From an uncultured delta proteobacterium (GTDB lineage: Bacteria > Myxococcota_A > UBA9160 > SZUA-336), in NCBI GenBank assembly GCA_963704165.1, contig CAVPHD010000010.1:32001-96000 (forward strand): a stretch of 64,000 nucleotides of DNA, given 5' to 3'. The position numbers were made by a program, and so were the translations under genes. Within the stretch, counting starts at the first letter, position 1, and every line of letters starts with the position of its first letter. The notes under the pieces are model-generated. The model saw nothing but the letters and a program-made list of their open reading frames with translations, was not told where the DNA came from and did not search any database. Shown here piece by piece: positions 3,185-23,176 of the stretch.

Positions 3185-4563
3185 CCCGACGGCGACGGCG
3201 CGCGGGGATCGATCTCGGACACGATCCACGGCGTCTTTCCGTTCGCCGAAACCGGCAGCGCCGCGACCTGCTCGACGTCGACTTGCACCTCGGCGCCCAT
3301 CGCGTCGCGAACCGCCCGCTCGATCCGGCTCCGCGCGGCCGCATCGATCGTCTGGCTCGAGCGGAGCTCGATGCGCAGCCGGTCGATGCGGGTCTGGACC
3401 ACGCGGAACTGATGGACCTCCGGGAGCTCGTCGAAGAGGTGCGTGAAGAACAGCGCATGAATCACGCGACCGCTCGGCGTCCGGATCGTGTCGTGCGCGC
3501 GACCGCTCACCGACGCGAGCAACGGCATCGGGCGGCCGCAGTCGCAGGGTTCCTCCGACGGAACGACCAGGTCTCCGACCGAATAGCGCACGAGCGGGGA
3601 GACGTACGAGTTCAGATTGGTGACGACGAGGTTCGCCTGCTCCCCGGGACGAGCCGCGCGGCCTTCGCACAGGAACTCGAAGACCATGGTCTCGTGCGAG
3701 AGGTGCAGTCCCCCGCTCGGACATTCGAATGCGATCACGCCGAGCTCTCCGCAGCCGTACTCGCAGATCGTCGGGCAACCGAGGACCCGCTCGATCAGAC
3801 GCCGCTGTGCCGCGGTCATGCCCTCGCCGGTGTAGATCGCACCGCGCACGCCGAGTCGCGTGCCGTCGAGGCCCTGCTTCTCGAGCCCCTCGCAGAAACG
3901 GAACAGGCCCGACGAGATCGCGCGGAGCACGCGCGGCCGAAAGCGGCGCAGGCGCCGATAGGCGCGCGCAATCGCGGCATCGTCGAGGGTGTAGACGTCG
4001 ATCAGCACGATGTTCTTGAGCCGGTAGGACCAGCGGCGCCGAAGCGCCGCGAGCGCGCCCTGGAGAGCGCCGGTCACGTCGCGCACGCCGCTCCAGATCA
4101 TCGCCTCACGGACACCGAACTCGAACCCCCACCAGCGTCGGCCGCGCGCGAGCGTCGCAAAGGTGTTCGACGCGATCGACTCCCGGTCGAGCCGGAATGC
4201 GAACGGCTCGCCGGTCGCTCCGCTCGTGACCCAGTCGTCCCAGGATCCGGCGCCACGCTCGTCGAGGAAATCCGAGTACGAGCTTCGCAGCGTGCTCTTG
4301 TCCACCACCGGCAATCCCGCGAGATCCTCCACCCCGTTCACGCGCTCCGGATCGAGTCCGATCCGCGCGAACTCGCGGCGATAGAACGGCACGTTCCGTC
4401 CGCAGTGACCGAGCAGCTCGCGGAGGCGCGTGCGCCGGTACGCCTCGACTTCGTCGGGCGTCGCCGCCTCGAGCCGCTCGAGCGTCTCGAGTGCCGGCCG
4501 ATAGTCCCAGCCGCGCGCGCGCTGGATCAGGTCGGCGTAGAACTTGGCGAAACGTTCGTACAT
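3181..4563 (-). CDS. phenylacetate-CoA ligase family (PaaK/CapK-like) AMP-forming enzyme
   Basis: NVPFYR, LPVVDK, TSGATGEP, YTGE, EYGCGE, PLVRYSVGDL, GRAHD and FRVVQ motifs; start MYERFAK at 4563. Confidence 0.85.
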   Translation of the reverse strand: MYERFAKFYADLIQRARGWDYRPALETLERLEAATPDEVEAYRRTRLRELLGHCGRNVPFYRREFARIGLDPERVNGVEDLAGLPVVDKSTLRSSYSDFLDERGAGSWDDWVTSGATGEPFAFRLDRESIASNTFATLARGRRWWGFEFGVREAMIWSGVRDVTGALQGALAALRRRWSYRLKNIVLIDVYTLDDAAIARAYRRLRRFRPRVLRAISSGLFRFCEGLEKQGLDGTRLGVRGAIYTGEGMTAAQRRLIERVLGCPTICEYGCGELGVIAFECPSGGLHLSHETMVFEFLCEGRAARPGEQANLVVTNLNSYVSPLVRYSVGDLVVPSEEPCDCGRPMPLLASVSGRAHDTIRTPSGRVIHALFFTHLFDELPEVHQFRVVQTRIDRLRIELRSSQTIDAAARSRIERAVRDAMGAEVQVDVEQVAALPVSANGKTPWIVSEIDPRAPSPSG

Positions 4564-4579: not shown

Positions 4580-5801
4580 TCACGCGCCGTGCGCGCGGCC
4601 CACCACCGAGGCGAAGAGCTTGGCGAGCTTCTCCGCCTCGCGGCGCGCGTCGTGGGCGAGCTGGACCCGCGCACGACCCGCCTGGCCCAGCTCGAGAAGC
4701 CGTTCGGGCGGTGCATCGAGCGCCTCCCGCATCGCACCCACCAGCGCGTCGACGCTTCCCGACGTCACCAGCCAGCCGGTCTCGCCGCTCTCGACGAGCT
4801 CGGGAATTCCCGCGATCTGCGTCGCGATCGCCGGGCGCGCGAGCGCGAACGCCTCCATGATCACGACGGGCAGTCCCTCGCCGAAGCTCGGCAGAACCAG
4901 TCCGCGCGAATCGAGCAGCTCGTCACGGACGTCCTCGCCGGATTTCCAGCCGAGGAAGCGGACGGTCTCGCCGAGCTGGCGCTCGCGAACCATGTCTTCG
5001 AACAAGCCGCGGAGCTCGCCATCGCCGATCAGGCGCACCTCGAAGCAGTGTCCCTCGGCCACGAGCCGCGCGCACGCCTCGACCAGGATCGCGTGCCCCT
5101 TCGAACGGCCGAGCCGGCCGACGCAGACCAGGCGCTTCGCCTCGGGGGGTGTCGCGACCGGGGCGTCGAGGAATTGCTCGTCGACACCGCAGCGGATCAC
5201 GTGGATCTTCTGCCAGTGCTCGGGATGGGACCAGCGGTAGGTCTGGCTGCGCGCGAAGTCGGTGATCGCGGCGACGAAGCTCGCCCGCGCGACCTTTTCG
5301 CCGAGGCTGATCTCCTGCGGACTGTCGAACTCGCCCGGCCCGTGGACGGTGAAGCTGAACGTGAGATCTCCGAGGGCGGCCGCGATCATCGCGACCATCG
5401 TCGCGTTCGTCCCGAAGTGCGCATGCACGTGCGAGACGCCCTGCGCGCTCCATGCTGCGCCAGAGCGCGCAGGCCTCGGCGAAGTACCCGAAGTGGCGCA
5501 CGAGACCTCGATGGGAACCCACCCCCCAACGAGTCGCCTGCCAGAGCGCAGACAGGAATCGCCGCGGCCGGGCCAGCAGCATCGCCACGACGTGCACGAG
5601 CAGGCCCGCGACGCCGCGCTCGAGGAGCGCCTCCGTGAGCTCGAGCTCGCGCCGGTCGGCGGGATCGGGAAGCGGCTCGCGCGCGGGCCGGATCGCCAGT
5701 CGGTGCACGCGGACGCCCGCGCGTTCGAGCCCAGCGATCTCGCGCCGGATGAACGTGTGCGTCGTCAGCGGATATTGGTTCGAGAGGTATGCGACTTTCA
5801 T
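4580..5801 (-). CDS. GT4 glycosyltransferase (WcaL-like), one apparent frameshift near 5440
   Basis: N-terminal MKVAYLSNQYP...TFIRREI in one frame; HAHFGTN...VGRLGRSKG...LPSFGEGLPVVIMEA in the next. Removing one G from GCAGGGCGT restores ERAGVSHVHAHFG. Confidence 0.85.
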
Positions 5802-5898: not shown

Positions 5899-6912
5899 TC
5901 AGGCCTTGTACTCGATCAGATCCGTACGGCGACCGTACACGTAACGGTTGAGCCCGAAGCGGATCACGCCCAGAAACTCGGCGAATTTTCCGATCACGCA
6001 CGCGGACGCGTAGAGCGACGCCGTCGATCCATCGTAGCCGCGCCGCAACGTCACCGCGCGTGCGCGCAGCCAGGGCCCGAGATACGCGAAGGCGGGCAAG
6101 ATCGCCCATCCCGGAGCGAGCGATCCCAGCGCGAGCGAGAGAGCTGCGGGGCCGATCGACCACGCGACGATCGACGCCAGCGGCCGGACCGCGAGCCCTT
6201 GACCACCGCCGCCATGCATCGAGGCGAGCTCCGCGTACGCGTGTCCGGAGCGCTCGCTTCGGCGCCAGAACTGCGCGAACCGCAACATCGCGGCGTCGTG
6301 CAGCGTCATCTCGCGGTCGATCCTCGCGATCCGATGGCCGCTTTTTCGGATCCGGTGGCAGAGTTCGGGCTCTTCGCCGGCGATCAGCCTCGGATCGAAT
6401 CCGCCCACGCTGCGCAGGACGTCGGCGCGCATCATCGCGTCGCCGCCGCAGCTGCGTGCTTCGCCGATCGGCGTGTCCCATTCGAGGTCGATGATCCGGT
6501 TGTAGCGGCTCGCGTTCGGAAACCGCTCACGGCGCCGGCCGCAGACGACCGAGACTTCGGGACTTCGGTCGAGGAACTCCGTCGCCGTCTCGAGCCAGCC
6601 GGGCTGGACTTCGCAGTCCCCGTCCACGAACTGCACGTAGCGAAGCTCGGGAACGAGGTCGAAGAGCCGATCGAAGCCGGCGTTGCGCGCGCGCGCCGCG
6701 GTGAACGGAATCGAGGTGTCGAGCCCGACGACCTCGGCGCCCGCCTCGCGCGCGGCTTCGACGCTCGCGTCCGTCGAGCCGCTGTCGACATAGACGATTC
6801 GGACGCGAGCGAGTCGCAGGGATGCGAGACAGCGAACCAGGCGCTGTCCTTCGTTGCGTCCGATCACCACCGCGCCGAGCGTGCCCGACGGCGATCGCCC
6901 CGGAGCTTCCAT
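5899..6912 (-). CDS. GT2 glycosyltransferase
   Basis: VVIGRNEG, YVDSGSTD, FTAARARNAG, FVDGDC and AGEEPELC motifs; start uncertain (6912, 6951 or 6960). Confidence 0.85.
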   Translation of the reverse strand: MEAPGRSPSGTLGAVVIGRNEGQRLVRCLASLRLARVRIVYVDSGSTDASVEAAREAGAEVVGLDTSIPFTAARARNAGFDRLFDLVPELRYVQFVDGDCEVQPGWLETATEFLDRSPEVSVVCGRRRERFPNASRYNRIIDLEWDTPIGEARSCGGDAMMRADVLRSVGGFDPRLIAGEEPELCHRIRKSGHRIARIDREMTLHDAAMLRFAQFWRRSERSGHAYAELASMHGGGGQGLAVRPLASIVAWSIGPAALSLALGSLAPGWAILPAFAYLGPWLRARAVTLRRGYDGSTASLYASACVIGKFAEFLGVIRFGLNRYVYGRRTDLIEYKA

Positions 6913-7093: not shown

Positions 7094-8215
7094 GTGGCGA
7101 TCGAGGTCGTTCCTTACACTGAAGAGTGGATACCCGCGGTCGCCGCTTTCAACCGGCGGATGGCCGCGGCGGGGATGCACTGGACCTGGTACGCGACGCC
7201 CGTCGATCGCTGGCTGCCCACGCGCGGCGACGCGCGAACCTGGCGTGAGCACTACCTGGCGGTCGAGGACGGCACGGACGTCCGCGGTGGGTACGCGCTG
7301 AAGCCGCACGAGTGGTGGATTCGCGGCTCGACGCAGCTCGTGACCGACTGGCAGGGGCCGATCACCGAGGGCGTGTACAGCCGCAGGTACAACACGCTCG
7401 GGCTGCGGCTTCTGCGCGAGATGCTGCGGCAGTATCCGTTGCTCTACAGCTGGGGGCACGGCGGGCTCGAGCAGCCGATGCTGGTGATGCTCGAGAAGCT
7501 CGGCTGGCTGATCCACCGGACACCGTTCTGCCTGCGCGTGCTTCGGCCGTTCCGATTCCTGCGGCGAAACGCGTTCCTCAGGGACTCGCCCGCGCGCCGG
7601 CTCGCGCTCGATCTCGCGGCGTTCTCGGGCGCGGGGAGCATCGGCCTGCGCGCGCTTCACTTCGCGCAGCTCGCGCGGAACCGGCGAAGCGAGGTGGCCC
7701 GAGCCGCGGAGTTCGAGCGGTTCGGAAGCTGGGCGGACGAGCTCTGGATGCGCGTCCGAGACCGGTACACGGCCGTCGCGCTTCGCGACTCCGCGACGAT
7801 GAACCACCTCCTGCCCCACGGCGGTTGGCCCGATGCGCGAAAGCTGCGCATCACGCGCGGCGCGGAGACGCTCGGCTGGGCGGTCGTCATGGACACCGCG
7901 ATGGAGGACGACCGGCGCTTCGGCCGCTTGCGCGTGGGCTCGATCGTCGATGCGCTCGCGCTGCCCTCGGACGCCGAAGCCGTCGTCGGTGCCGCATACC
8001 GCGATCTGCGCGCTCGCGGCGTGGACATCGTGATCTCGAACCAGGCGCACCCCGCCTGGGTTTCGGGATTCGCCGCACACGGATTCGCGATTCTCGAGAA
8101 TCGCCGCGCCTTCGCCGCATCTCCCGAGCTCCAGCGCGTGCTGTCTCCATTCGAGGAGACGCGCCTCGGGCTGCACCTCACGAACATGGACGGCCACGGG
8201 CCGATGCGCCTCTGA
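7094..8215 (+). CDS. hypothetical protein, possibly GNAT-fold acyltransferase
   Basis: Protein-like composition from GTG 7094 after a G-rich RBS; alternating strand/helix pattern (HYLAVEDG..VRGGYAL; LGWAVV..VGSIVDAL) suggests tandem GNAT-like folds, with no diagnostic motif. Confidence 0.5.
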   Translation: MAIEVVPYTEEWIPAVAAFNRRMAAAGMHWTWYATPVDRWLPTRGDARTWREHYLAVEDGTDVRGGYALKPHEWWIRGSTQLVTDWQGPITEGVYSRRYNTLGLRLLREMLRQYPLLYSWGHGGLEQPMLVMLEKLGWLIHRTPFCLRVLRPFRFLRRNAFLRDSPARRLALDLAAFSGAGSIGLRALHFAQLARNRRSEVARAAEFERFGSWADELWMRVRDRYTAVALRDSATMNHLLPHGGWPDARKLRITRGAETLGWAVVMDTAMEDDRRFGRLRVGSIVDALALPSDAEAVVGAAYRDLRARGVDIVISNQAHPAWVSGFAAHGFAILENRRAFAASPELQRVLSPFEETRLGLHLTNMDGHGPMRL

Positions 8216-8361
8216 TGCGCGTTCCCTGCCGGTCACTGGCCGGCGGCCCTGCCGGGACTCAAGTGGCGTCCGAACCCCCTCGATGAGGAAGCCGGGTTCA
8301 GCACCGGCCCCGGATGGGCTATTGTGGAGCCCGTTCGGGCGTTCTCGTCCCCCACGAATCC

Positions 8362-8377
8362 CGGAACACGCATTGCA
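8362..8377 (+). promoter_or_regulatory. candidate sigma-54 (-24/-12) promoter upstream of the diiron oxygenase-ACP-SGNH unit
   Basis: CGGAACACGCATTGCA: GG (8363-64), N10, GC (8375-76) with TTGCA, about 45 bp before ATG 8422. Confidence 0.35.
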
Positions 8378-8421
8378 TGCTCCCCCGCACGCGAGGGAAG
8401 CACCCACCGATGAGGGACACC

Positions 8422-9282
8422 ATGGAAACCGCGACTGAACTCGCCGTTCGCCTCTCCAAGGCGAGCCGAAAGAAGTTCTACAACGTCTATACCGCCTTCG
8501 ACTGGCCCGAGTCCCTGGACGACTCGCGCTGGTGCATGCCGCCGGAGCTGATCTCCCTGTATGGGACGCCCGCCTGGGAGAAGCTCGACGACGCGCAGCG
8601 GCACCGGCTCTCGCTCCACGAGATGGCGAACCTCTTCAGCCTGACCGGCCAGGGCGAGGGCCCGCTGGTGCAGGGTCTGATCAGCCAGATGTACCCCCAC
8701 AACGACGCCGACATCACCGGCTACCTGCACCACTTCCTCGACGAAGAGAACAAGCACATGGTGATGTTCGCGGAGTTCTGCCAGCGCTACATCGGCAAGG
8801 TCTACCTGTACAAGAAGCTCGCCCTGCCCCGGGAGTACGAGAAGGGTGAAGAGGACGTGGGCTTCTTCATCAAGGCGCTGACCGTCGAGGAGATCGGCGA
8901 CTACTACAACGTTCTGGCCGGCAAGGACGAGCGTGTGCACCCGATCGTGCGCGACGTGAACAACCTGCACCACAGCGACGAGGCGCGGCACATCGTCTTC
9001 GGCCGCGAGGTGCTGCGAAGCACGTTCGCGGAGCACTCGCCGAAGTGGTCGAAGGAGACGCTCGAAGGCGTGCGCGAGTGGATCGCGAACTACCTGCGCT
9101 CCTCCTGGGCGGACTTCTACAATCCGTCGGTCTACCGCGACGCCGGCGTTCCCGACGGATACGCCGCGCGCGAGTTCGCGCTCGGCTCCGAAGTCTGCCG
9201 TGAGCACCGAAAGCGCGCGTCGGAGAAGCTGGTCTCGTTCCTCCTCGAGGCCGGCATTCTCGAGGTCGAGCCCGTCCTCTGA
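8422..9282 (+). CDS. AurF-family diiron oxygenase (N-oxygenase-like)
   Basis: Ferritin-like ligand motifs GQGE, DEENKH, TVEE and HHSDEARH, plus PELISLYGTPAW; ATG 8422 after GAGGGA. Confidence 0.8.
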   Translation: METATELAVRLSKASRKKFYNVYTAFDWPESLDDSRWCMPPELISLYGTPAWEKLDDAQRHRLSLHEMANLFSLTGQGEGPLVQGLISQMYPHNDADITGYLHHFLDEENKHMVMFAEFCQRYIGKVYLYKKLALPREYEKGEEDVGFFIKALTVEEIGDYYNVLAGKDERVHPIVRDVNNLHHSDEARHIVFGREVLRSTFAEHSPKWSKETLEGVREWIANYLRSSWADFYNPSVYRDAGVPDGYAAREFALGSEVCREHRKRASEKLVSFLLEAGILEVEPVL

Positions 9283-9536
9283 TGCTCGAGTCCGAAGTTC
9301 GCGAGCAGCTCCGCGCCTGGATCCTCCGGCGTTCGCAGTCCAAGGCGACGACCGAGCTCAAGGACGACACGCCGATCCTCGAATCCGGCCTGTTGTCCTC
9401 GCTCGACGTCGTCGAGCTGATCCTCTTCATCGAGAACCTGAAGGGCGCCGAGGTCGACGTCGACGACATCGAGCCGGAAGTCCTGACGAACGTGAACACG
9501 ATCTACGAGGGATTCTTCCGCGGGGAAGCCGCGTAG
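9282..9536 (+). CDS. acyl/aminoacyl carrier protein
   Basis: 84 aa, acidic, DDTPILESGLLSSLDVVELILFIE with the phosphopantetheine Ser in an SSL variant of DSL; TGATG overlap with the oxygenase stop. Confidence 0.8.
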   Translation: MLESEVREQLRAWILRRSQSKATTELKDDTPILESGLLSSLDVVELILFIENLKGAEVDVDDIEPEVLTNVNTIYEGFFRGEAA

Positions 9537-9564
9537 CGTCTCGAGCGCGGCGGGGAGCGATGTC

Positions 9565-10626
9565 GTGAGCTTGCGATCGACCCTCCGATCCGCGCTGGTT
9601 CGGTCCGCCGCCGTCGGTCTCGGACTCGGCATCGGCCTGGTCGCGGCGGAGCTCGCGCTGCGCATCGTCGCGCCGCAGGAGAAATCCTGGCTCGACATCT
9701 ATCGCGTCGATCCGGTGCTGCCCCTCGTCTCGCTCGCCCCGAACGTCTCGACGACGGTCGAGACCGGCGAGAGCCGCTGGCACGTCCAGACGGACGCGGG
9801 CGGCCATCGCGTCGGCCGCGCGGGGCCCGCGGATCCCTCGGGCCGGTCGCTGCTCGTGCTCGGTGACTCGTTCGCGTTCGGGCACGGCGTCGACTTCGAG
9901 GAATCGTTTCCGGCGCTGGTCACCCAAGAGCTCGACGGTGGATTCCGACTCGTCAACACGGGCGTGCCGGGATTCGGTCCGGTCCAGTACCGCCAGATCC
10001 TCGAGTCGATGCTCGAATCGGGCGAGCGCCCGTCGGCGATCCTGCTGAGTCTCTATCTCGGCAACGACTTCCTCGACTGCATCTGGAACAAGCGCGTGCA
10101 GGTCGTCGACGGAACCATGGTCGAGGAGTCGGGTCGGCTTCGGACCTGGCTGAAATTCAACCTCCACGCGTACCGCCTGGCGAGCAAGGTCTATCAGCGC
10201 GCGCTCGCATGGAGCCGACCGGGCCGGAACCCCGAAGAAGCGCTCTTCGATCCCGAGGCCTGGCGAAGCGGCGATCCCGCGCGGGCGTTCGAGATCTTCA
10301 GGACGGAGCTCGCCCGGATCGGCGAGCTCGCGCGCGCAGCCGGAGTTCCGATTCTCGCGGTGGTGATTCCGAAGGAGACGTCGCTCTTGCACGCCTCGGC
10401 ACCCGCGAACGCGGAGCTCGACTACGGTCTGCCGCTCGCGAAGGCCACGCAGGCGCTCGACGCCTCGGACATTCCGTACGTCGATCTGACCGAGGCGCTG
10501 CGAATGCTCGGCGCCCGCGAGGCGTACTTCGCGCGCGACGGCCATCTGACGCGGCCCGGCAACCGCGAAGCCGCCGCCGAGATCGTCCGCGCCCTGAGCG
10601 CGCTGCTCGCCGCGCCGGCGAGCTAG
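9565..10626 (+). CDS. SGNH/GDSL-family protein (AlgJ/AlgX-like O-acyltransferase candidate)
   Basis: N-terminal TM helix; LGDSF, NTGVPG, YLGNDF and RDGHL motifs. Confidence 0.8.
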   Translation: MSLRSTLRSALVRSAAVGLGLGIGLVAAELALRIVAPQEKSWLDIYRVDPVLPLVSLAPNVSTTVETGESRWHVQTDAGGHRVGRAGPADPSGRSLLVLGDSFAFGHGVDFEESFPALVTQELDGGFRLVNTGVPGFGPVQYRQILESMLESGERPSAILLSLYLGNDFLDCIWNKRVQVVDGTMVEESGRLRTWLKFNLHAYRLASKVYQRALAWSRPGRNPEEALFDPEAWRSGDPARAFEIFRTELARIGELARAAGVPILAVVIPKETSLLHASAPANAELDYGLPLAKATQALDASDIPYVDLTEALRMLGAREAYFARDGHLTRPGNREAAAEIVRALSALLAAPAS

Positions 10627-11804
10627 AAGAGCTGCCGCTCGAGCTCGCTCGCGATCGTCCGCGCGATGACTCGCGCTCCGTTCTCGTTGAAGTGGATCCC
10701 GTCGTAGTAGAGATCCTCGCGCTCTCCGAGCAGCGCGGGGAGGTCGATGAACGCGACCTTCTCGCGGCTCGCGACCTCGCGCATCCGGTCGTTGAACTTC
10801 GCGAGCAGCGAGAGCATGTCGTCGGGGCTGAGATAGGACGTGCCGCCGTCCATCGCGCCCATCCAGAGCTTGTCGAGATCCGCGTCCTTCGAGAAACGGC
10901 TCTGGATCAGCTGGGCCACGAAGACGGGCTCGGTATTCGCGCGCCGCGCGGCCGCGATGAAACGCTCGAGATTCGCACCGTACGCGTCGAGCGCGAGCGG
11001 CAGGGTCTCGAGCTTCGCGTTCGGAACCTGCTTCTTCTCGATCGCCGCGCGCTTGGCGCGTTGGTCCTCCATCCAGCGGAGTTCCGCGTCCTGCTCGATC
11101 CGCCCTTCCTCGCGTTGCCTCGCGATCAGCAGCGACTTCACCCTGCTCTTCAGCGCGCTCGCGCGCTTCCACGTTTCGAGGCGCTTGTACCAGGGCCAGT
11201 GATCCGGTGTGTACCGACTCACTCGAAATGCCTCACCGAGCCGCCCTTCCCAATGACTCGGGTCGTCCAGGTACTTCGGATCGAAGCTCTCCGCGTAGAG
11301 CCAGGCTCCCATGTCGTTCAGGCCGGAATAGAGCAGCACGTAGTCGAGGTCCGGGATCTCCGGAAGCAGGTAGAGCGCGTGCATCAGATGGTGCTGGCTG
11401 TTGTGCCCGTCGATCGCGGCATTGCCGACCCAGTACGCCTTGGGATCGTTCGCGTCCTCGTCGAGGTAGCGCATCAGCAGCGCGGGCCAGGTCTCGGCGT
11501 CGTCGAGCACCGTGCAGGCGGTCGTGCTCCCACCCACCGTCAGGATTCGCACCCGCTCGCCGTCCGGCTCCGGCCCGCGCGTGCCGAAGCTGTTCGTCGA
11601 GAAGTAGGAGACACCGGAGACCCCCGGAGTGATCGCCTCCGATGGGTGGAAGACCTCGAGCGCGTTGCGGTGGTAGGGATAGAAGCTCTGGGGGTCCCGC
11701 AGCCACCGGAGGGCGCCCTCGAGAGCCACGAAGCAGAGCAGGCTCGAGACGACGAGCAGGGCCAGCGACAGAAGACCGGAAGCGAGTCGCGACCGCCCGG
11801 TCAC
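10623..11804 (-). CDS. SGNH/GDSL-family protein
   Basis: TM anchor; VGGSTT, GNAAIDG, SGLNDM and YDGIHF motifs; GTG at 11804 overlaps the stop of the adenylation gene. Confidence 0.8.
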   Translation of the reverse strand: MTGRSRLASGLLSLALLVVSSLLCFVALEGALRWLRDPQSFYPYHRNALEVFHPSEAITPGVSGVSYFSTNSFGTRGPEPDGERVRILTVGGSTTACTVLDDAETWPALLMRYLDEDANDPKAYWVGNAAIDGHNSQHHLMHALYLLPEIPDLDYVLLYSGLNDMGAWLYAESFDPKYLDDPSHWEGRLGEAFRVSRYTPDHWPWYKRLETWKRASALKSRVKSLLIARQREEGRIEQDAELRWMEDQRAKRAAIEKKQVPNAKLETLPLALDAYGANLERFIAAARRANTEPVFVAQLIQSRFSKDADLDKLWMGAMDGGTSYLSPDDMLSLLAKFNDRMREVASREKVAFIDLPALLGEREDLYYDGIHFNENGARVIARTIASELERQLF

Positions 11805-13426
11805 GAAGAGGACTCCGACGCGAGCGTCGCGAGCAGCGCGCCGCGATCGATCTTTCCGTTCGCGTTCAGCGGGAACACCGAGACGAGGCGTAGCTCGCGG
11901 GGCACCATGTAGCTCGGCAGCCGGGCCTTCAGCCGTTCGAGGATCGGATCGAGGTCGAGTTCGTCGGCGCCGAGAAATGCGACCACGCCGTCGGCGCCGC
12001 CGGCGTTTCGCGGCCAACCGACCGCGATCGCCGCATCGATTCCCGCCTCTTCGCGCAAGGCGGCCTCGATCTCGCCGAGCTCGACGCGATAGCCCTGGAT
12101 CTTGATCTGGTTGTCGATGCGCCCGAGGTAGACGAGCGGCTCGTCGCGATTCGGACGTCGCACGCGATCGCCGGTGCGGTAGAAGACCCGGTCACGGCCC
12201 GGAGGAACGACGAAGGCGGCCCGCGTGCGCTCGGCATCGTGCCAGTAGCCGAGCGAGAGCTGGGGGCCGGTCATGAGCAGCTCGCCGATCTCGCCCGGCG
12301 CGACCTCGACCTGCGACTCGTCGGCGACGAGCACCTCCATCTCCGGAAACGGCGCTCCGATCGGTACCACGCCCTGCTCGCACTCTCCGGGCGAGCGATC
12401 GGCGTCCCAGCGGTAGAGCGTGCACGCGATCGTCAGCTCGGTCGGTCCGTACAGGTTCTCGACGATCGAATTCGGCGCGGCACCGGCCCAGGCACGCGCG
12501 ACCTCGATCGGCAGCGCCTCGCCGCAGAAGAGGCTCACGCGCAGGTTCGGGAACGCGTCGGGCTTCAGCTTGCGGAGCTTGGCGAGCAGCATCCCCGTGG
12601 ACGGCACCGAGAACCAGATCGTGAGCCGCGATTCGTTGATGAACGATGCCGGCACGAGCTTCGTCTTCTGCGACGGAACGCAGACGCACGCGCCGCGTTG
12701 CCACGCGACGAAAATGTCGAAGGCCGAGAGGTCGAAGGTCAGGTCGAACATCTGCGAGAACCGATCGCTCTCGCGAACTCCGTACCGCTCCACCATCGCG
12801 TCCACCACGTGACCGACGTTGGCTTGCGACACCATCACGCCCTTGGGGTCGCCCGTGCTACCCGACGTGAAGAGCAGGTAGGCGAGCGCATCCGCGGACA
12901 CGGCCCGCGGCACGAAGGCCGGGAGCGCGTCGTCCGAACGGACGATCTCGAAGCGGTGCATCGGCCAGCGCGCGCGGAGCTCGGCCGCGGGCGACGCCGC
13001 AGGCAGGACGAGCACGAGCGGCCGTGACACGTTCGCGAGCACCGCCTCGAGCTCGCTCATGGCGTTCCCATCGACGATCACGTCGCGGCAGCCGGAGCGC
13101 TCGAGCATCCGCGCGCTGCGTTCGGCGGGAAAGGCGGGATTGAGCGGCACGTAGCCGTGCCCGCGAAGCAGCGCGGCCAGGATGCCGGCGAAGGCCAGCT
13201 CCGATCGGTGCCCGAAGACGGCGGTCAGCGGCGGATCGGAGCTCGCGGAGATCTCCTCGAGCATCCCGGCCAGGTTCGACGCCGTGCGGTACAGGCCCGC
13301 GTAGCTGAGCTCTCGCCCGTCGATCTCGAGCGCGGGCCGCTCACCGTGGCGCTCGAACGCGTCCACGAACCTCGATGCCAGGCCGCGCATCACGACACCG
13401 GCGCCGACGACGGCCTTTCGCGCCAC
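11801..13426 (-). CDS. stand-alone amino acid adenylation enzyme (DltA-like)
   Basis: A-domain cores AYLLFTSGSTGDPKGV, FDLS, LFCGE, NLYGPTE, YRTGD, GRIDNQIKIQGYRVELGEIE, LPSYMVP and NGKIDR. Confidence 0.9.
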   Translation of the reverse strand: MARKAVVGAGVVMRGLASRFVDAFERHGERPALEIDGRELSYAGLYRTASNLAGMLEEISASSDPPLTAVFGHRSELAFAGILAALLRGHGYVPLNPAFPAERSARMLERSGCRDVIVDGNAMSELEAVLANVSRPLVLVLPAASPAAELRARWPMHRFEIVRSDDALPAFVPRAVSADALAYLLFTSGSTGDPKGVMVSQANVGHVVDAMVERYGVRESDRFSQMFDLTFDLSAFDIFVAWQRGACVCVPSQKTKLVPASFINESRLTIWFSVPSTGMLLAKLRKLKPDAFPNLRVSLFCGEALPIEVARAWAGAAPNSIVENLYGPTELTIACTLYRWDADRSPGECEQGVVPIGAPFPEMEVLVADESQVEVAPGEIGELLMTGPQLSLGYWHDAERTRAAFVVPPGRDRVFYRTGDRVRRPNRDEPLVYLGRIDNQIKIQGYRVELGEIEAALREEAGIDAAIAVGWPRNAGGADGVVAFLGADELDLDPILERLKARLPSYMVPRELRLVSVFPLNANGKIDRGALLATLASESSS

Positions 13427-13601
13427 GATCGATCCCGAATCCCGTCACGCTCGATCATTTTCTCTCCCGAACCCTCGTGCGCGGGCGCACGTTCATGTAC
13501 CCGATCTGCGGTACATCGACCACAGCGGGTGCGCGCGAAAGACGATGGTAGGATCGTCAGCCATTCCGGAGTGAAGGCCGAGCGAGAGGCGGGCGATCGC
13601 G

Positions 13602-15207
13602 GTGAACTTCGACTCACTCCAGTACCTGCTCTTCCTGCCGGCGGTCTACACGCTGTATCGGCTGCTGCCGCACCTCGGGCAGAACCGCATGTTGCTCGTC
13701 GCCAGCTACTTCTTCTACGGCTGCTGGGACGTCCGATTCCTGTCGCTGATCATGCTCTCGACGGCGTTCGACTACGCGAGCGCCCTGATGATCGATCGCG
13801 GCGCGCTCGAGCGCCGGCAGGGATTCGCGGCCGCGGCCTGGGCCGTGCTGGGGATGGTCGTCTTCGTGGCGATCGACTGGCCGCAGGTCTTCGCTCCCGA
13901 TTCCACCGGCAGCGTTCTGACGCGCACCGGCGTTCTCGCGTCGCTGGCCGTCGCTTCGGTCTGCGTCGTCGCCGCCGCGGGCTACGGGCGTTTCACGGCG
14001 CTTCCCGAGCGAACCCGGCGCCGCGCTGCGCTCGTGGCGAGCCTCGTCGTGGACCTCGGCGTGCTCGGGTTCTTCAAGTACTTCAACTTCTTCGTCGGAA
14101 GCCTCGAGGAGCTTTTCCGGGACTTCGGCGTTTCGGCCGCGCACTGGCATCTCGACGTGGTGCTCCCGGTCGGGATCTCGTTCTACACGTTCCAGACGAT
14201 GAGCTACACGATCGACGTCTATCGCGGTCGCCTCCGCGCCACCGACAGCCTCCTCGACTTCGCGCTCTTCGTGTCCTTCTTTCCGCAGCTCGTGGCGGGC
14301 CCGATCGAGCGCGCCACGCATCTCCTGCCCGCGCTCGTCGGCACGCGACGCGTGCGCCTCGATTCCGTCGACGCGCGGCCTCTACCTGATCCTGCTCGGG
14401 CTCTTCAAGAAGGTCGCGATCGCGAACGGCGTGGCCCAGTCGGTCGACTCGATCTACAACTCGACGCATGCCGCCAGCGCCGGCGACGTCGCGCTCGCCA
14501 CGGCGCTCTTCGCGATCCAGATCTACTGCGACTTCTCCGGCTACACCGACATCGCGCGCGGCAGCGCGAAGCTCCTCGGCATCGATCTGATCGAGAACTT
14601 CCGGCAGCCGTACTTCTCGACCAACCCGAGCGAGTTCTGGCGGCGCTGGCACATCAGCCTCTCGACCTGGCTGCGCGACTACCTCTACATCCCGCTCGGC
14701 GGAAACCGCGGCGGCGGCGTCGCGACCTACCGCAACCTGATGCTGACGATGCTGCTCGGCGGGCTCTGGCACGGCGCCGCCTGGAACTTCGTCCTCTGGG
14801 GCGCGTTTCACGGCGGAATTCTCTGCGTCCATCGGCTCGCGAGCGGCGGGCGCGTGGCGGCGCGCGGCAGCTGGCACTACCCGAAGATGCTCCTCTTCTT
14901 TGCCCTCACCTGCTACGGCTGGCTGCTCTTCCGCGCGAACTCGTTCGAGCAGATCGCGTCGTTCACGCAGACGCTCGTGACCGGCGCGAATGCGTTATCG
15001 CTCTCGATCCACCCTCCGACGTTCGCGGCGTTGATCGGCCTGCCCGTCCTGTTCCTGCTCGAAGCCTTCGAGTACGCACGCGGCGACCATCTCCACTACC
15101 GCGGCCTTCCGCCGTGGGCGAGAGGCGCGCTCTACGCGGCGTTGATCTTCGTGATCCTCCTCGGCACCAGCAATGAACCCACCCAATTCATCTACTTCCA
15201 GTTCTGA
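13602..15207 (+). CDS. MBOAT family O-acyltransferase (AlgI/DltB-like), one apparent frameshift near 14370
   Basis: LPVGISFYTFQ and FFPQLVAGPIER, then in the +1 frame GLFKKV, QIYCDFSGYTDIARG, FWRRWHISLS, GGLWHGAAWNF and C-terminal FIYFQF. Confidence 0.9.
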
Positions 15208-16327
15208 GCCCGCGTTCCGCGCGCAGCTTCGCGACCTGGTCTCGGTCGTCGCGTGGAGCCTCGCGTGGCTTCTGGCGATCGACGTCGGTCTCGGCCTCTG
15301 GCTCGGGGATCCACCGCGTGGACCCGCACGAGTCGAAGGCCAGCTGCAGCGCTACTTCGAGTACGGACGCTCCACCGAGGGCAAGATCCGCGCGATGATC
15401 GGCGCTTCGGACGATCTCACGCATCCGCTCGCCCTCTCGGGCTGGATCGAGCCGCCGAAGGATCAGCCCCGCACCCCGCCGGAGGGCAGCGAGCGACTCG
15501 TCGCGGTGTACGGCATGTCGTTCAGCGCCAATGCCGCGCTGGCGATGCACGAGCAGGATCCGACGCTCGCGGTGCGGAACGCCGGCGGACCCGGCGCCAC
15601 CCTCGCCCACTCCTACGCGATGTACCTGCGCGACCGAAGCGAGCACGACGCGAGCGTGATCGTGCTCGCCGTGCTCGCGTCGAGCTTTCCGAGCCTCTCG
15701 ACGCTCACGCACGCGACCTGGAACTTCGAAGCGCCGTCGCCGCACTTCTACCCGAGGTTCACGCTCGACGACGGCGCGCTGGCCTCGATCTCGGCGCCGA
15801 TCGACTCACTCGACGATCTCCGTGGCGCGCTCGCGGACTCCGAACGTTTCGACGAGCTCGTGCACGTGCTCGAGCGAGACGACGTGTTCTACGACCCGCT
15901 CGTCTTCCGGGAATCACGGCTCGACGGCTCCGTGATCGCGCGAACGATCCGCCGCGCATGGGGGCAACGCGCGAAGCGTGCGACGATCGGCCGCTTCCAC
16001 GACGCGCACGGCTTCACCAACGACCTCGACGCGGTCGAGATCGCGCGTGCGATCGTGCGCGAGTTCGTCACTCGGGTCCGCGCCGACGCGAAGCTCCCCG
16101 TCCTGCTCCTGATCCACGACCAGGGCTACGCCGACCATCTCTTCCTGGCCCTTCGCCCGGTGATCGGGGAAACCGGCGTGGACTTCGTCAGCACCCACGA
16201 GATCGCGCCTGCGATGGACGGTTCGAACTTCGTCCGCGACGGGCATTTCACGCACGCGAACGATCTCCGAATCGGGAAGGCGCTCGGCGACGTGATCCAC
16301 CGGGCGTCGCCACTTCCGCCTCGCTAG
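15173..16327 (+). CDS. SGNH-like membrane-anchored protein partnering the MBOAT (AlgJ/DltD-like)
   Basis: Starts inside the MBOAT 3' end; TM helix; YGMSF and RDGHF motifs. Confidence 0.65.
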   Translation: MNPPNSSTSSSEPAFRAQLRDLVSVVAWSLAWLLAIDVGLGLWLGDPPRGPARVEGQLQRYFEYGRSTEGKIRAMIGASDDLTHPLALSGWIEPPKDQPRTPPEGSERLVAVYGMSFSANAALAMHEQDPTLAVRNAGGPGATLAHSYAMYLRDRSEHDASVIVLAVLASSFPSLSTLTHATWNFEAPSPHFYPRFTLDDGALASISAPIDSLDDLRGALADSERFDELVHVLERDDVFYDPLVFRESRLDGSVIARTIRRAWGQRAKRATIGRFHDAHGFTNDLDAVEIARAIVREFVTRVRADAKLPVLLLIHDQGYADHLFLALRPVIGETGVDFVSTHEIAPAMDGSNFVRDGHFTHANDLRIGKALGDVIHRASPLPPR

Positions 16328-16427: not shown

Positions 16428-18392
16428 ATGAAGCAGAGGCTTCGAGTACTCCTCGGTGCCGCGCGAGGGCTCTGGCCGAGCCGCGCCGACTTCGGCTCCG
16501 CCGCATCGTCCGGCGTCGAGTCGCTGCTTCTCGACGGTGCGAAACGCATGGGCATCGTCCTCTTCGTCGCGATCACGATCGTCGACACGCTGGCCGTGGC
16601 CTCGGGCCTGGCGGACCTCCACGCGACGCTGCTCTACGACGGACTGACGCTTCTCGGTGTCGCCGTCGCCGGCGCGTCCACCCGGATCGCGAAACACTTT
16701 CCCGAGCTCCCGCTCTTCGCGATGGCGACCGTGCTCAACATCTCGTTGATCTTCGGAGTTGCGACTCTGAACGCCGGCCACCACGAGGTCGGCCTGCTCT
16801 GCGTGGCGGTGCCCATCGGCGTCGCCGCGTTCGCGCCGCTCCATCCGCTGCTGATGATCGCGCTCGGGATCGAAGTGGTCGCGTTGCTGCCGTTCGCCGA
16901 ACGAATCGCGCCGCCCGGCTGGTCGCTCGATTCGCCGATCGTCGCCGCGCTCGCGATCGCGATCGCCGGGATGGGCGCATCGGCGTCACGCAGTCAACGC
17001 GCGGTCTGGGCGCGCTTTGGCGACGCACACGAACGCGCGCTCCAATCGACGCGGACGAAGTCCGAGTTCCTGGCCAACATGAGCCACGAGATCCGGTCGC
17101 CGATGACCGCGATCCTGGGATTCGCCGACGAGCTCGAGCGGAAGATCGCGGTCCTGCACGCCGACGCCGAGACGCTCGAGGCGCTGCACACGATCCAGCG
17201 CAACGGCGCTCACCTTCTCGATCTGATCAACCGGATCCTCGACCTGTCGAAGGTCGAGGCGGGCAAGCTCCCCGTGCTCTCCGCGCCGTGTTCGCCGGCT
17301 TCGATCGTGCGCGAAGTCGTGCAGCTTCTCGGGCCGCAGGCGCGCACCAAGGGAGTTCGTCTCGAGACACGCTGCGACGGGCCGATCCCGGGTGCGATCG
17401 CGAGCGACGCGAGCCGTCTGCGCCAGATCCTGACCAATCTGATCCAGAATGCGATCAAGTTCACCGACAGCGGCGAGATCCGCGTGGTGTCGCGACTCGT
17501 CGCAAATGGTTCCGCATCCGAGCCGTGGCTCGAGATCTCGGTCGAGGACACCGGTATCGGCATCGCGACCGAGGATCGGCACGCGATCTTCGAGCCGTTC
17601 ACGCAGCTCCACGATGCATCGGTGCACGCGCAGCCCGGCACCGGGCTCGGTCTCTCGCTCTCGCGTCGTCTCGCGCGGCTGCTCGGCGGCGATCTCGTGC
17701 TGGCGAGCGAGATCGGTCGCGGCAGTCGGTTCACGGTTCGTGTACCCGCAACTCCGATCGCCGAGTTCGAGTCCGCGGGACCGGACTGCAGCGCTCTGGA
17801 ACCGAAACCCGACGTGCGCGTGAGCGGTCGCATCCTGATCGCCGAGGACGGCGTGGACAATCGGCGTCTGCTTCGGGCGATGCTGGCCAGCGCCGGGCTC
17901 GAGGTCGAGCTGGTCGAGAATGGCGAGCAGGCGTGTCAGCGAGCCAGCGAGGCTCAGCGACTCGATCGACCCTTCGATGTGTTGTTGATGGATATTCAAA
18001 TGCCGATCCTCGACGGCTATGCCGCAACGCGTCGCCTGCGAGCCGAGGGTTATCCCGGTGCGATCATCGCGCTCACGGCCCGTGCGATGGTCGGTGATCG
18101 CGAACGCTGCCTCGAAGCGGGCTTCGATGACTACGCGAGCAAGCCGATCGTCCGCTCCGACCTGATCGCGCGGATCTCCGGATCGATCGCGAAGTCGCGG
18201 GGCGTAATCCCCAGCCGACTGAGCCGGACCGATTTCCAGACTGAGAAGCTCGGAAATCCCAGGATCGATGCGCGTATCCACGTCGTCGGCCTGATAGGAT
18301 TGTGTCCGTGCGAGGTGACGGGGAACTTCGCGGCAGCTCGAAGAAGTCCCAGAAGAAGAAGGGACCCTCACGCGGCCAACGGTTCACGCTGA
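16428..18392 (+). CDS. hybrid sensor histidine kinase/response regulator with polytopic N-terminus
   Basis: H-box EFLANMSHEIRSPM, NLIQNAIKFT, DTGIGI, GTGLGL; receiver IAEDG..LMDIQMP..DG..SKP. True stop is probably TAA 18205-18207 if one G of the GGGG run is spurious. Confidence 0.9.
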   Translation: MKQRLRVLLGAARGLWPSRADFGSAASSGVESLLLDGAKRMGIVLFVAITIVDTLAVASGLADLHATLLYDGLTLLGVAVAGASTRIAKHFPELPLFAMATVLNISLIFGVATLNAGHHEVGLLCVAVPIGVAAFAPLHPLLMIALGIEVVALLPFAERIAPPGWSLDSPIVAALAIAIAGMGASASRSQRAVWARFGDAHERALQSTRTKSEFLANMSHEIRSPMTAILGFADELERKIAVLHADAETLEALHTIQRNGAHLLDLINRILDLSKVEAGKLPVLSAPCSPASIVREVVQLLGPQARTKGVRLETRCDGPIPGAIASDASRLRQILTNLIQNAIKFTDSGEIRVVSRLVANGSASEPWLEISVEDTGIGIATEDRHAIFEPFTQLHDASVHAQPGTGLGLSLSRRLARLLGGDLVLASEIGRGSRFTVRVPATPIAEFESAGPDCSALEPKPDVRVSGRILIAEDGVDNRRLLRAMLASAGLEVELVENGEQACQRASEAQRLDRPFDVLLMDIQMPILDGYAATRRLRAEGYPGAIIALTARAMVGDRERCLEAGFDDYASKPIVRSDLIARISGSIAKSRGVIPSRLSRTDFQTEKLGNPRIDARIHVVGLIGLCPCEVTGNFAAARRSPRRRRDPHAANGSR

Positions 18393-21300
18393 ACCGGCCG
18401 ATTCGCTTCGGCGACTTCGTGCTCGATGCAGCGGCCGGTGAGCTTCGCCGCGAGGGAAGACCCGTGGCGATCGCGCAGAAGCCTTTCGCGATGCTCTGCC
18501 ATCTGGTCGCGAATTCGAATCGTCCCGTCCCCAAGGCGGAGCTCTTCAAGAAGATCTGGCCGAAGGTCGTCGTCAGCGATGCCGCGCTCGATAGCGCGCT
18601 CAAAGATCTTCGCCGTGCGCTCGGAGACGAGGCGGCACACCCCCGGTTCGTGCGCACGGTGCGCGGCCGCGGCATCCGCTTCATCGCAGAGGTCCGCTAC
18701 GGCCCCGGCCCGCGAAAGCGATCGGCGGACGACACGTCGACGGCTGCCGCGCCCGCAACCGCGACCGTCGAGTCGTCGCGCTTCGTCGACCGCGTGCGGG
18801 AGCTTCGCGCGCTGATTCGCTCCGCCGAGGCCGCCGCGCGCGGCCAACCCAGCGTGATCGTGATCGAGGGTGCAGCCGGCGTGGGCAAGACCCGACTCGT
18901 CGAAGAGCTACTTCGCGATCCGGCCAGCGCCGACTTCTCGATCGGACGGGGAAGCTGCCATCCGGATGAGCGCGAACCCTACCACCCGTTCGGCGAGGCC
19001 TTCCGCGATCGACTCCGGCCGGGCGAGACCGAGAGCGGACGACCCGGCGCGGCCGAGGTCGAGTTCCACCGGCTTCTCGATCCGAGCCGCGGCGAACCGC
19101 ACATCGACCCGAGCGAGTGCGCGGACAGCCGCCGCGAACAGTCGGAACTCTACGGTGCGATCTGGCACGTCGTCGCGCGGCTCTCGCGTTCGCACCCGAC
19201 GCTGATCGTGACTCGAGGATCTGCACTACGCGAGCGCGTCGACACTCGACCTGCTCCTCAGCCTGGCGATCGACGTCGCCGACGTGCACGGACCCGATGG
19301 CGTACCGCTCCTGATCCTCGCGACCACGCAACCCGCGAAGCCCGGTACGCGCCTCGACGTGACGCTGCGCAGACTCGAGAAGCAGCGCAGCTACAGCTCG
19401 ATCCGGATCCGAGGTCTGGGCCTGCGCTCGACGCGGGAGTTCGTCGCGGGGATCGCGGGCGCTCGCCCGACCGAGCCGGTCGCGAGGGCGTTTCGCGACG
19501 CCACCGCGGGAAACCCATACCTGTTGACCATGGTGATGCGCCAGTACGGCGAGTCGATCGCCGTGACCGCCGGAATCGATCGCGGCGCTGCGCACCCCGA
19601 TCGTCCATCGGCTCGAGGCTCTCGACGCCGAGTGCCGCCGCATCCTCACGGTGGCGGCGTTCTGCGGCCAGGACTTCGGCCTGATCACGATCAGCGCCGT
19701 CAGCGGGGCGATCTCCGCGAAGACCGCGGCCGCCATCGAAGCCGGCCGTGGCGCTCGGGCTCGTGGTCGGCGGACCGCGGAGATTCCACTTCGAACACGA
19801 TCTCGTGAGGGAGGCGCTGCGCGACGCGACACCCGAAGGCGAGCGCGGCGAAGATCCACCTCGAGCTCGCGAGAGTGCTCGAGGAGCTTCACGGCGGTAC
19901 GTCGAGCGAGCACGCGATCGAGATCGCGCGGCATCTGCTGCTCGCGGGTCCGCACGTCGATCCGTCGCGGCTCGTGCACTTCAGCCCGTCGCGCCGGCGA
20001 CCAGTCCTTCGCGGTCTGCGCCTGGCGGGAGGCGGCGGAATTCTATGAGGCGGCTCTCGGTGCGGAGTCGAAGCTCTCGGGGTCGGAGCGCGCGGATCTT
20101 CACCTGCGGGCGGGGCTCGCGAGGAGCCATGACCTCCAGACCCGGCAGGCGGTCGATCACTTCACGAGTGCCGCGCGCGGTTGTTCAAGTCCGCGGGAGA
20201 TGACTCGGGATTCACCTGGGCGCTGCTCAACGAGACCCATGCGCGCAATTCGCTGACGCCGATCAGGTCTCGCGCGGCCGGCGACCTGCAGCGAACTCGT
20301 GGATCTCTACGCAAAGCTCGGTGAAGGCGAGCCGGGGTTGCGCGGCCGTCTGCTCGCGAGCCTGGCGGCGGCCGCGCGGGCCCTGAGCAGCGACGAACGC
20401 TCCGAGGACTTCGCCGAGCAGGCGCTTGCACTCGGACGCGCGACCGACGACGACGTCGTCTGCTTCCTGGCCTGCGAGCAGCTCGCGCTCACCCGGCACG
20501 CGCGGCTGCGGCTGCGCGACTCGCTCGCCGGCTGGCTCGACGCCGCCGCGTACGCGCGCAGGTCCCGCGACCCGTGGCTGCAGTCGGTCCCCGGTCCGAT
20601 GATCACGCTCGCGCTGCTGCAGCTCGGTCGCTTCAGCGAGGCGCGGACCGCCGCGCGCGAGGCGGAAAAGCTGGCTCGAAACGCGCGAAACCGCGCCTCC
20701 CTCGCGCTGGTCCTGGCTCTACAAGGAGCGCTCGAGCTGGCGAGCGGAGACCTCGACGGCGCAGACGAGCGAATCCGCGAGTCGCACTACACCTCCGAGT
20801 TCTCGCGCGATACCTGGGGCCGGATCGTCACCGACGTCGTCCGATCCTGCAGCGCCTGCCACCGCGGCCGCTGGAACGATGCCGAGGCCGCGGTGTCGGA
20901 GCTCGCGAGCGGAGGTCACGCCTATGGCGAGGGCGGAAAGCTCGGGCCGCTTCCGGTCGCGTCGATGCGCCAGCTCTTGCTCGCGTATCGCGCCCCCGAC
21001 GAGGTCGACCGCGACGAGTTCGCCGCTCTGGTGAGCCGTGCGCTGGCGGAGGGGGTGCGAGGCCAGCAACTGACCGCCCTCTCGAGGCTCTCGGAAGTCG
21101 CGGTCCTTCTCGGATCTCCCGAGCAGAGCCGGGCGCTCGAGAGCCAGCTCGAGGTCGCGCACGCGCAGGGATTCGTCTTCATTGGCGCGAGCGCCGTGCT
21201 TCTGCCGCGGCTGCTCGCGGGCACGGCATCACTCGATGGCCGGCTGGACCAGGCCGAGACCTACTTCGTCGAGGCGCTCCAGAAGGCGCGACTGGCGGGC

Positions 21301-21498
21301 GCCCGGATCGAGCTCGCCTTCACGCTGATCGATCGCGCGGGAATGCGCCTGCGCCACCGGGGGGCCGCCGCACGAGATCTCGAGCAGGCGCGCACGGACG
21401 TCGCCGAAGCCGCTTCGATCGCGCGCGACCTCGGGCTCGACCAGATCGAGCGCACGGCGAAGGAACTCGCTCGCGGGCTCGCCGTCCGCGTCCGTTAG
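18302..21498 (+). CDS. winged-helix (OmpR/CadC-type) + AAA/STAND ATPase + helical-repeat transcriptional regulator, multiply frameshifted
   Basis: FGDFVLD..LFKKIWP..LRRALGD..FVRTVRGRGIRF; Walker A GAAGVGKT; Walker B LIVLEDLH across a shift at 19211; TAGNPY; FEHDLVRE; Ala-rich helical C-terminus. About seven frame changes between 19211 and 20295; start uncertain. Confidence 0.75.
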
Positions 21499-21598
21499 CT
21501 TCGGCGCAATCCCCGGAAAATCCCCAACTCGAAGCTCTCAGTGATCGTACTGTGGTGAGTGGAATCGAGACCCATCGGTTTCAGGGAGGGGAAGGGAA

Positions 21599-21919: not shown

Positions 21920-22073
21920 ACGGCGATCTGATATCAACCGATCATTTCGTTCATCGACTCATTCGTGAGTTTCTGAGACGTGATTGACTGATATCATGTA
22001 ACTCACTGCCGTACATCACTTTTTCGTCTCGACCGCTCATGCTTTCTGCGCGCCGGCCGATCCAGAAGCAGAG
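21920..22073. promoter_or_regulatory. AT-rich spacer with repeated palindromic operator-like sites
   Basis: CTGATATCA at 21928-21936 and 21988-21996; ACTCA-N4-TGAGT at 21957-21970; markedly lower GC than the flanking genes. Confidence 0.55.
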
Positions 22074-22621: not shown

Positions 22622-22648
22622 GCGGGCGCGGCGCCCGCCGAGATCCGG

Positions 22649-23029: not shown

Positions 23030-23176
23030 CGCCACCCGCTTCGGCTTCGCGATGGAGTTCTTGAGATTCGAGGCGCATCGCTCACCCTGATCCACCTCAG
23101 TGATCTCACTCCGTCATTCGACAGCGCCTCGCTCACTGTCATCAAGCCGTCGCTCCGCTGCACCGAACCACACGGC

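Follow-up and report, generated by a model that had tools for sequence, protein, structure and literature searches.

A conserved unit of four genes, encoding a tandem GNAT protein, an AurF-type diiron enzyme, a carrier protein and an AlmE-like adenylation enzyme, lies within a glycan locus of an uncultured delta proteobacterium. The DNA analysed is a stretch of 64,000 nucleotides (the window) that begins at C10:32001 of genome G000, and the cassette studied is found at positions 7094–16327 of it. Our preferred reading, to which we give about an even chance, is that glycine is loaded, N-oxidised and amide-linked by the GNAT protein to an amino sugar of a Wzy-type exopolysaccharide, and that the MBOAT and SGNH proteins encoded alongside form a separate system. 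The adenylation enzyme would load glycine onto the free carrier, and the diiron enzyme would oxidise the tethered amine to a nitronate or oxime. A deacetylase would free a sugar amine on the repeat unit of the exopolysaccharide, and the tandem GNAT would then join the oxidised glycyl unit to this amine in the cytoplasm.

A module conserved across loci

Gene identities, folds, conserved residues and co-occurrence are established here. For the last of these, the top-ranking 80 loci were fetched from each of two sets, one of 269 from genomes and one of 388 from metagenomes; removal of duplicates left 142, and 83 with less than 5 kb on a side were dropped, leaving 59 with full flanks. The carrier and the adenylation (A) domain are both present with the oxygenase in 48 of these 59. 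Among the 48, a CE4 deacetylase is found in 24, a polyketide synthase (PKS) in 19, WecG in 16, an AsnB-like gene in 15, DUF2334 in 12, the MBOAT in six and its SGNH partner in four. A first-pass annotation of the window had proposed looking for co-occurrence of oxygenase, carrier, A domain, MBOAT and SGNH genes, and had named its absence as a refutation. The proposal passes this check only in half: oxygenase homologues do travel with the A domain, but mostly without the MBOAT or its SGNH partner. At the level of genomes, the GNAT gene is present in 32 of 225 members of the class, and 30 of the 32 hold the oxygenase (14 from one set of genome searches and 16 of 18 from another, the two misses being 79% and 88% complete). 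The oxygenase was searched for in a subset of the 225 that included the holders of the GNAT gene and of the SGNH partner. This partner occurs in 12 of the 225 genomes, five of which hold the oxygenase. Five genomes have no intact GNAT gene at the oxygenase locus (none in four, a remnant in one), and all five hold one elsewhere.

The GNAT gene (7094–8215, plus strand) had been described as a GNAT-like orphan. The fold was correctly recognised, as the AF2 model (predicted local distance difference test, pLDDT, 94) is a tandem GNAT whose best fold matches are NMT (Z 17.9) and Eis (Z 15.6), with Fem at Z about 10. It is not a mere orphan, being the conserved partner of the module in 39 of the 48 loci. 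The protein is soluble and matches no named family, and is the predicted acyltransferase of the core module. A C-terminal N-x-DGHGP motif is invariant. In a check for membership of the FemAB or CelD/BcsL families, no NCBIfam match better than E 0.05 was found among 49 members, and no Pfam match for two; Atlas neighbours are unnamed or generic GNAT clusters, and the plasmid collection contained no match.

The oxygenase (8422–9282, plus strand; PF11583, E 1.6e-47) is a ferritin-like diiron enzyme of the AurF/CmlI type and a putative N-oxygenase of the loaded carrier. The stop codon of its gene and the start codon of the carrier gene overlap (TGATG at 9280–9284), as had been noted in the first-pass annotation. 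The free carrier protein (9282–9536, plus strand), also recognised there, gives weak DltC/ACP matches under the cut-off and has Ser40, which is kept in 121 of 121 relatives. The fourth member, a stand-alone adenylation enzyme (11801–13390, minus strand), matches TIGR01733 above the cut-off. It had been called DltA-like; the stand-alone adenylation enzyme stands, but it scores far under the DltA cut-offs (260 vs 476 and 250 vs 560 bits). No membrane segment is predicted in the GNAT protein, the oxygenase, the A domain or the CE4 deacetylase.

Probable substrate, oxidation and acceptor

Sequence and context underlie the likely assignments of substrate, oxidation level, transfer direction and acceptor. 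In the case of the substrate, the binding region of the adenylation enzyme is closest to IdnL7, PDB 8k4r and AlmE, and AlmE and IdnL7 score above DltA. At the positions of the PheA scheme, the pocket code of the window enzyme reads DLFFLCLIAK, which it has in common with 67 of the 95 A domains aligned (duplicates included); ten of the others have DLHFLCLIAK, six are near-identical or cut, and 12 are of two other types (about 31% identity). By alignment the pocket of AlmE is DLHLFCLIAK, identical to that of the window enzyme at seven of ten positions. The window enzyme has L233 (the Leu after the conserved Asp), C301 and F272, as expected of a tight glycine pocket of the AlmE type. According to the text available of the review PMC11253843, L248 and C316 are the glycine determinants of AlmE, and DltA makes space for the methyl group through smaller neighbouring residues. 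One of these smaller-neighbour positions appears to be Phe in the window enzyme, by our own mapping. Because the Leu/Cys determinants of AlmE are kept and the pocket matches at seven of ten positions, glycine is the likely substrate, with D-alanine possible.

For the oxidation step, the structure model of the oxygenase (pLDDT 90) matches CmlI (Z 21.4) and AurF (Z 20.2) better than ribonucleotide reductase R2 (Z 16.8), with identities of 14–16%; compared by sequence with solved structures, the oxygenase had no more than a marginal match, to R2. The candidate ligands E84, E114, H117, E161/E162, H188, E192 and H195 (numbered from a start at 8407) are invariant in 42 oxygenase sequences. They were mapped by motif spacing, not by superposition, onto the Dob3 numbering given in the available part of the preprint PMC12154687. 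The same part of the preprint describes a seventh His as characteristic of diiron N-oxygenases of the AurF/CmlI type; here it corresponds to one of the invariant candidates just listed, the His four residues before the last E-x-x-H. Oxidation of glycyl-carrier to a nitronate or oxime is reported for antibiotic pathways in the accessible text of PMC9967187, and is proposed for althiomycin in that of PMC3445576. Plasmid relatives with 35–37% identity are found in Tistrella, Streptomyces and Agrobacterium (three of 24 records opened). The Streptomyces gene adjoins an acyl carrier protein (ACP) gene and an aminoacyl-tRNA-ligase-like gene, and the Agrobacterium gene a nitronate monooxygenase gene. 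Across the three opened regions, a nitronate monooxygenase gene stands beside two of the oxygenase relatives, and a carrier gene with an aminoacyl-tRNA-ligase-like gene beside two, an arrangement like that of the known nitronate chemistry on glycyl-carrier. Because of the fold, the ligands, the seventh His and the gene setting of these relatives, it is a well-founded inference that the diiron enzyme N-oxidises a carrier-bound amino acid. In the Tistrella plasmid cassette (L218:8929-13239) the diiron oxygenase gene is accompanied by genes for a carrier-sized protein of 84 amino acids, an amino acid-[ACP] ligase, a methyltransferase and a nitronate monooxygenase.

The pairing of distant relatives with nitronate monooxygenases also favours a different outcome, in which loading and transfer are the same and the N-oxidised group is transient, its nitrogen being lost or converted to leave a glyoxylyl- or glycolyl-type group, or in which the diiron enzyme performs some other oxidation. 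The low identity of the oxygenase to characterised N-oxygenases is consistent with this, as is the addition in some loci of a 2OG-Fe(II) oxygenase (9 of 48) or of a FAD monooxygenase with a different A domain. However, the conserved core has no second oxidase, none of 42 commoner neighbour representatives in a Pfam scan is a nitronate monooxygenase, and the N-oxygenase-type seventh His is kept. We consider such an outcome quite unlikely.

Two variations of the oxygenase setting are worth recording. In five loci (L095, L102, L103, L170, L216) the oxygenase and carrier genes face those for a FAD monooxygenase and for an A domain of another type, with the code DNFFIAMVDK and about 31% identity; this cassette may handle another substrate. 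In loci of Sphaerotilaceae and related Burkholderiales (L029, L032-L035, L041, L052, L053, L055, L058, L067) there is a second oxygenase copy, head to head with a free TIGR04020 monooxygenase gene and with no carrier nearby. These copies form a clade with support 100 in a tree of the quick type, from which only strongly supported clades were used.

Sugar amine is the acceptor that we consider likely because deacetylase families flank the module and glycan export genes surround it (Wza, Wzc, WcaJ, Wzx, Wzy-like and exosortase genes). CE4 or DUF2334 flanks 36 of the 48 loci, and the two are found together in none, an either-or pattern that fits the need for a free sugar amine. In the window the candidate is a soluble CE4 polysaccharide deacetylase without a predicted transmembrane segment (42379–43233, minus strand; PF01522, with weak HfsH/PgaB matches), whose family is the one present in 24 of 48 loci. 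A deacetylase plus a GNAT protein is the proposed route for aminoacylating sugar amines in the Vim pathway (PMC7468200) and in holdfast synthesis (PMC5362036), as far as the available text of these papers goes.

Several observations weigh against this account. The Leu/Cys pair is also present in DltA, hence the possibility of D-alanine; the identity of the oxygenase to CmlI and AurF is only 14–18%; and 13 oxygenase copies, in one clade from Sphaerotilaceae and related Burkholderiales, have no adjacent carrier. NMT and Eis, the best folds of the GNAT protein, take acyl-CoA, and the loaded carrier could be the acceptor and not the donor. No deacetylase lies within 10 kb in 12 of the 48 loci, that of the window sits 33 kb from the module, and DUF2334 is counted as a deacetylase on a profile match to CE4 that is weak (probability 37%). 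Related genomes do not count as independent samples, and kinship inflates any P value for the either-or pattern. Finally, a PKS co-occurs with the oxygenase nearly as tightly as the module's own genes, and the glycine unit may enter a hybrid product of this enzyme and a nonribosomal peptide synthetase (NRPS).

The polyketide genes and the MBOAT-SGNH pair

To the left of the window are Wza, WcaJ, Wzc, an exosortase with EpsI, an NRPS, a PKS and a phosphopantetheinyl transferase (PPTase). The first-pass annotation had seen no condensation or ketosynthase domain. This holds inside the window, but a type I PKS of one module (KS-AT-KR-DH-ACP-TE, G000:C10:23889-30317) follows the NRPS just outside; the ketosynthase was missed because the window edge fell 1.7 kb from the end of the PKS gene. 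The NRPS on this contig is broken by about ten frame changes. Read from intact orthologues, it consists of a formyltransferase, an A domain interrupted by a TIGR04020 monooxygenase, and a PCP, and its pocket motifs resemble the glycine code. As separate observations, the whole run of NRPS, one-module PKS with TE and PPTase (G000:C10:19153-30994, L197) lies inside an exosortase-linked polysaccharide locus and is conserved across the class, and in G248, as read from the sequence, a condensation domain appears to open the NRPS instead of the formyltransferase. A crotonyl-CoA carboxylase/reductase (CCR) gene inside the window (988–2238, minus strand; TIGR01751, 563 bits against a cut-off of 379) likely supplies the extender for this PKS.

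The main rival to glycan decoration is a joint NRPS-PKS-glycine product. Here, all these genes would serve one pathway, in which the GNAT protein N-acylates the (N-hydroxy)glycyl-carrier with a polyketide chain or the PKS takes up the oxidised glycyl unit. The product would be a lipid with a hydroxamate or nitro group, later glycosylated or hung on the glycan. A PKS orthologue is present in 26 of 29 oxygenase-positive genomes (10 of 10 and 16 of 19, the three misses having 500–830 contigs) vs three of 32 oxygenase-negative ones (64–66% identity in two, 48% in one), and in nine of ten checked cases it lies on the oxygenase contig within 6–39 kb. Four clusters opened in full have the same parts in varied order. 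In Sphaerotilaceae the genes for PKS, CCR, GT2, GNAT, oxygenase, carrier and A domain form one operon-like series; NMT acylates the amine of glycine, which suits its place as best fold of the GNAT protein; and the duplicate oxygenases are head to head with a monooxygenase of the family inserted in the NRPS. On the other hand, the NRPS comes with a formyltransferase and an A domain of its own and so needs no outside starter, G029 and G031 have the PKS in a glycan locus without GNAT or oxygenase, and the pattern of deacetylases favours a sugar amine as the acceptor. A joint product seems fairly unlikely to us, and the second thiotemplate module (a formyltransferase-A/monooxygenase-PCP NRPS with a one-module PKS) likely makes another substituent. 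A broader view, in which several phyla build an exopolysaccharide with an N-oxidised glycyl (nitroacetyl or oximinoacetyl) amide through antibiotic-type carrier chemistry and the unnamed tandem-GNAT family, together with a formylglycine-polyketide unit from the NRPS-PKS, all from one conserved cluster of about 40–60 kb, so that natural-product assembly lines would decorate a cell-surface glycan, is tentative and more apt to fail than to hold.

The remaining genes of the cassette encode an MBOAT and three SGNH proteins, which the first-pass annotation had read as a Dlt-like export system. All three SGNH proteins are present as described; they have the motifs G-x-S and D-x(x)-H and a hydrophobic segment at the N-terminus. 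The first (9565–10626, plus strand; AlgX/GDSL_2 matches below or near the cut-off; family in six loci) is a membrane-anchored accessory protein inserted in the lineage of the window, and the second (10623–11804, minus strand; GDSL_2 E 2.6e-14; family in four loci) is likewise membrane-anchored and accessory. The third (15173–16327, plus strand; GMSF ... DGHF; no Pfam match) is the partner of the MBOAT and adjoins such an MBOAT in every context inspected. The AlgI/PatA-type MBOAT itself (13602–15207, plus strand) does end in FIYFQF as had been stated, but its reading frame is broken in the assembly by one extra base near 14363–14365 relative to two same-genus orthologues; the gene is intact in G007 and G003. 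The F-x-YFQF motif is found in eight of eight aligned MBOATs, with an SGNH gene adjacent.

Spelled out, the route of the first-pass annotation would have the oxidised aminoacyl-carrier dock on the MBOAT, from which the group would pass via the FIYFQF tyrosine to an SGNH serine and be esterified to the polymer outside the membrane. In its favour, unrelated lineages (the window, L028, L045, L091 and L104) have the pair next to the module though it is rare there, the SGNH partner being in the host alone in one of 401 and one of 201 genomes sampled around two such hosts. The module-adjacent MBOATs have a common N-terminal insertion of about 70 residues, and carrier-fed MBOATs do occur in such loci (ACP, FkbH and MBOAT in L039). 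Against it, the adenylation enzyme falls outside the DltA family, and among loci with carrier and A domain the MBOAT is found in six of 48 and the SGNH partner in four of 48. In G003, G513 and G514 unrelated genes surround the isolated pair; in G258, G286 and G383 it serves another glycan locus; and G435 keeps it intact while only remnants of the oxygenase and GNAT genes are left at that locus. All six MBOAT loci also have the GNAT gene, and one of these MBOATs belongs to its own ACP and FkbH unit. The available text of PMC12148441 describes the use of acyl-CoA by MBOATs that carry the motif at their own C-terminus. Export and ester formation through the MBOAT and SGNH proteins is the part of the first-pass annotation that found no support, and we hold it to be very improbable. 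Because the pair occurs mostly without the carrier module, it is likely a separate O-acylation unit using acyl-CoA. Its recurrence beside the module may be explained by common residence in a mobile glycan cluster, and a functional link may exist in a minority of loci.

Three more specific roles for the MBOAT were rejected. As a Dlt-like main export route it fails since the pair is mostly apart from the module (6 of 48 loci, 5 of 12 genomes); as a substitute for the GNAT protein it fails since none of nine GNAT-less loci has an MBOAT; and a module-specific subtype is not supported, since the N-terminal insertion, judged by length and by full-length matches, recurs in the stand-alone pairs of G003 and G514. 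Judged from its sequences, the cassette is outside the Dlt family, and a Dlt-like route is unsupported as the main pathway. The unit in L039 (L039:3733-8720) is a curiosity in its own right, with an ACP, an FkbH-domain protein carrying an N-terminal methylmalonyl-CoA-epimerase-like domain, and a short MBOAT ending in FFYRF, inserted in the same cluster; L056 holds ACP and FkbH-like relatives.

The surrounding locus and known systems

Next to the module are the two glycosyltransferases that had been noted: a GT2 (5899–6870, minus strand; PF00535), which is a frequent companion of the module (23 of 51 loci), and a GT4 (4580–5801, minus strand), frameshifted in the assembly. Further along the same glycan locus are a Wzx-type flippase (37144–38646, plus strand; PF13440) and, beside the deacetylase, a WecG/TagA-family glycosyltransferase (43257–44015, minus strand; PF03808, E 9.8e-53; 16 of 48 loci). 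Frame changes relative to relatives affect four genes of the contig (Wzc, NRPS, GT4 and MBOAT), or four of 35 matched stretches, three of the 35 being parts of one PKS; they may reflect assembly error or gene decay, which look alike here.

Between CCR and GT4 (2372–4563) there is an M55 D-aminopeptidase-family gene with a PaaK/F390-like ligase gene, both rare in related loci. At 16428–33039 the glycan cluster is interrupted by a type II secretion-like operon, the gene for a hybrid histidine kinase, an AAA/regulator gene that appears broken, and three short, repeated-looking open reading frames (21599–22621); the glycan genes restart near 35572. At 44041–46556 a carbamoyltransferase, an SxtJ-like membrane protein and a small protein, with 92% identity to the same-genus orthologue, are likely a further glycan-decorating unit; the carbamoyltransferase is found in 10 of 51 loci.

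Each part of the proposed pathway has a known counterpart. The AlmE/AlmF/AlmG system of Vibrio cholerae, which places glycine on lipopolysaccharide, shares the free adenylation enzyme and carrier, the Leu/Cys pair and the seven of ten pocket positions. Its AlmG is a homologue of lipid A late acyltransferases and it has no oxidase, whereas the window has a tandem GNAT in an exopolysaccharide locus. The enzymes for enteromycin carboxamide, akazaoxime and althiomycin, compared by description in what is available of PMC9967187 and PMC3445576, resemble the window in that a diiron enzyme turns carrier-bound glycine into a nitronate or oxime. Unlike the window genes, which have GNAT, deacetylases and Wzy-type export genes as partners, those systems feed NRPS-PKS antibiotics, some with an O-methyltransferase. 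VimE/VimA of Porphyromonas and Tannerella and HfsH/HfsK of the Caulobacter holdfast share the deacetylase with a GNAT-type transferase proposed for aminoacylation of sugar amines, as well as WecG, AsnB-like and exosortase neighbours. In the portions available, these systems are described without carrier, adenylation enzyme or oxygenase, and the GNAT protein of the window is nearer to NMT and Eis (Z 15–18) than to Fem (Z about 10). An MBOAT, an FxYxxF motif and a partner of the SGNH type are common to the window and to DltABCD/DltX, PatAB and AlgI/J/X. In the window, however, the MBOAT itself carries the motif, as PatA and AlgI do, in place of a DltX, and conservation does not tie the pair to the carrier module.

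By analogy, the cassette most likely combines AlmE/F-like loading, enteromycin-type N-oxidation and Vim/HfsK-type transfer. Of the first-pass annotation, the idea that a glycan locus encodes the loading of an amino acid on a free carrier and its oxidation by the diiron enzyme is kept, with backing from gene context and sequence rather than assay. Its author also knew of no described system with this combination, and targeted literature searches, which covered subscription journals thinly, returned no description of the gene combination or of a glycan-bound nitro or oxime substituent. What is new here is that the MBOAT was demoted by test, that the NRPS-PKS is tightly linked, and that the deacetylases follow an either-or pattern; an MBOAT with FIYFQF beside a carrier protein is no evidence of a Dlt-like route. 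The four core proteins are soluble, so that testing them jointly in vitro is feasible. There is a precedent for each step, but a nitro- or oxime-bearing substituent on a surface polysaccharide, if true, would be new envelope-glycan chemistry (acidic, metal-binding and reactive).

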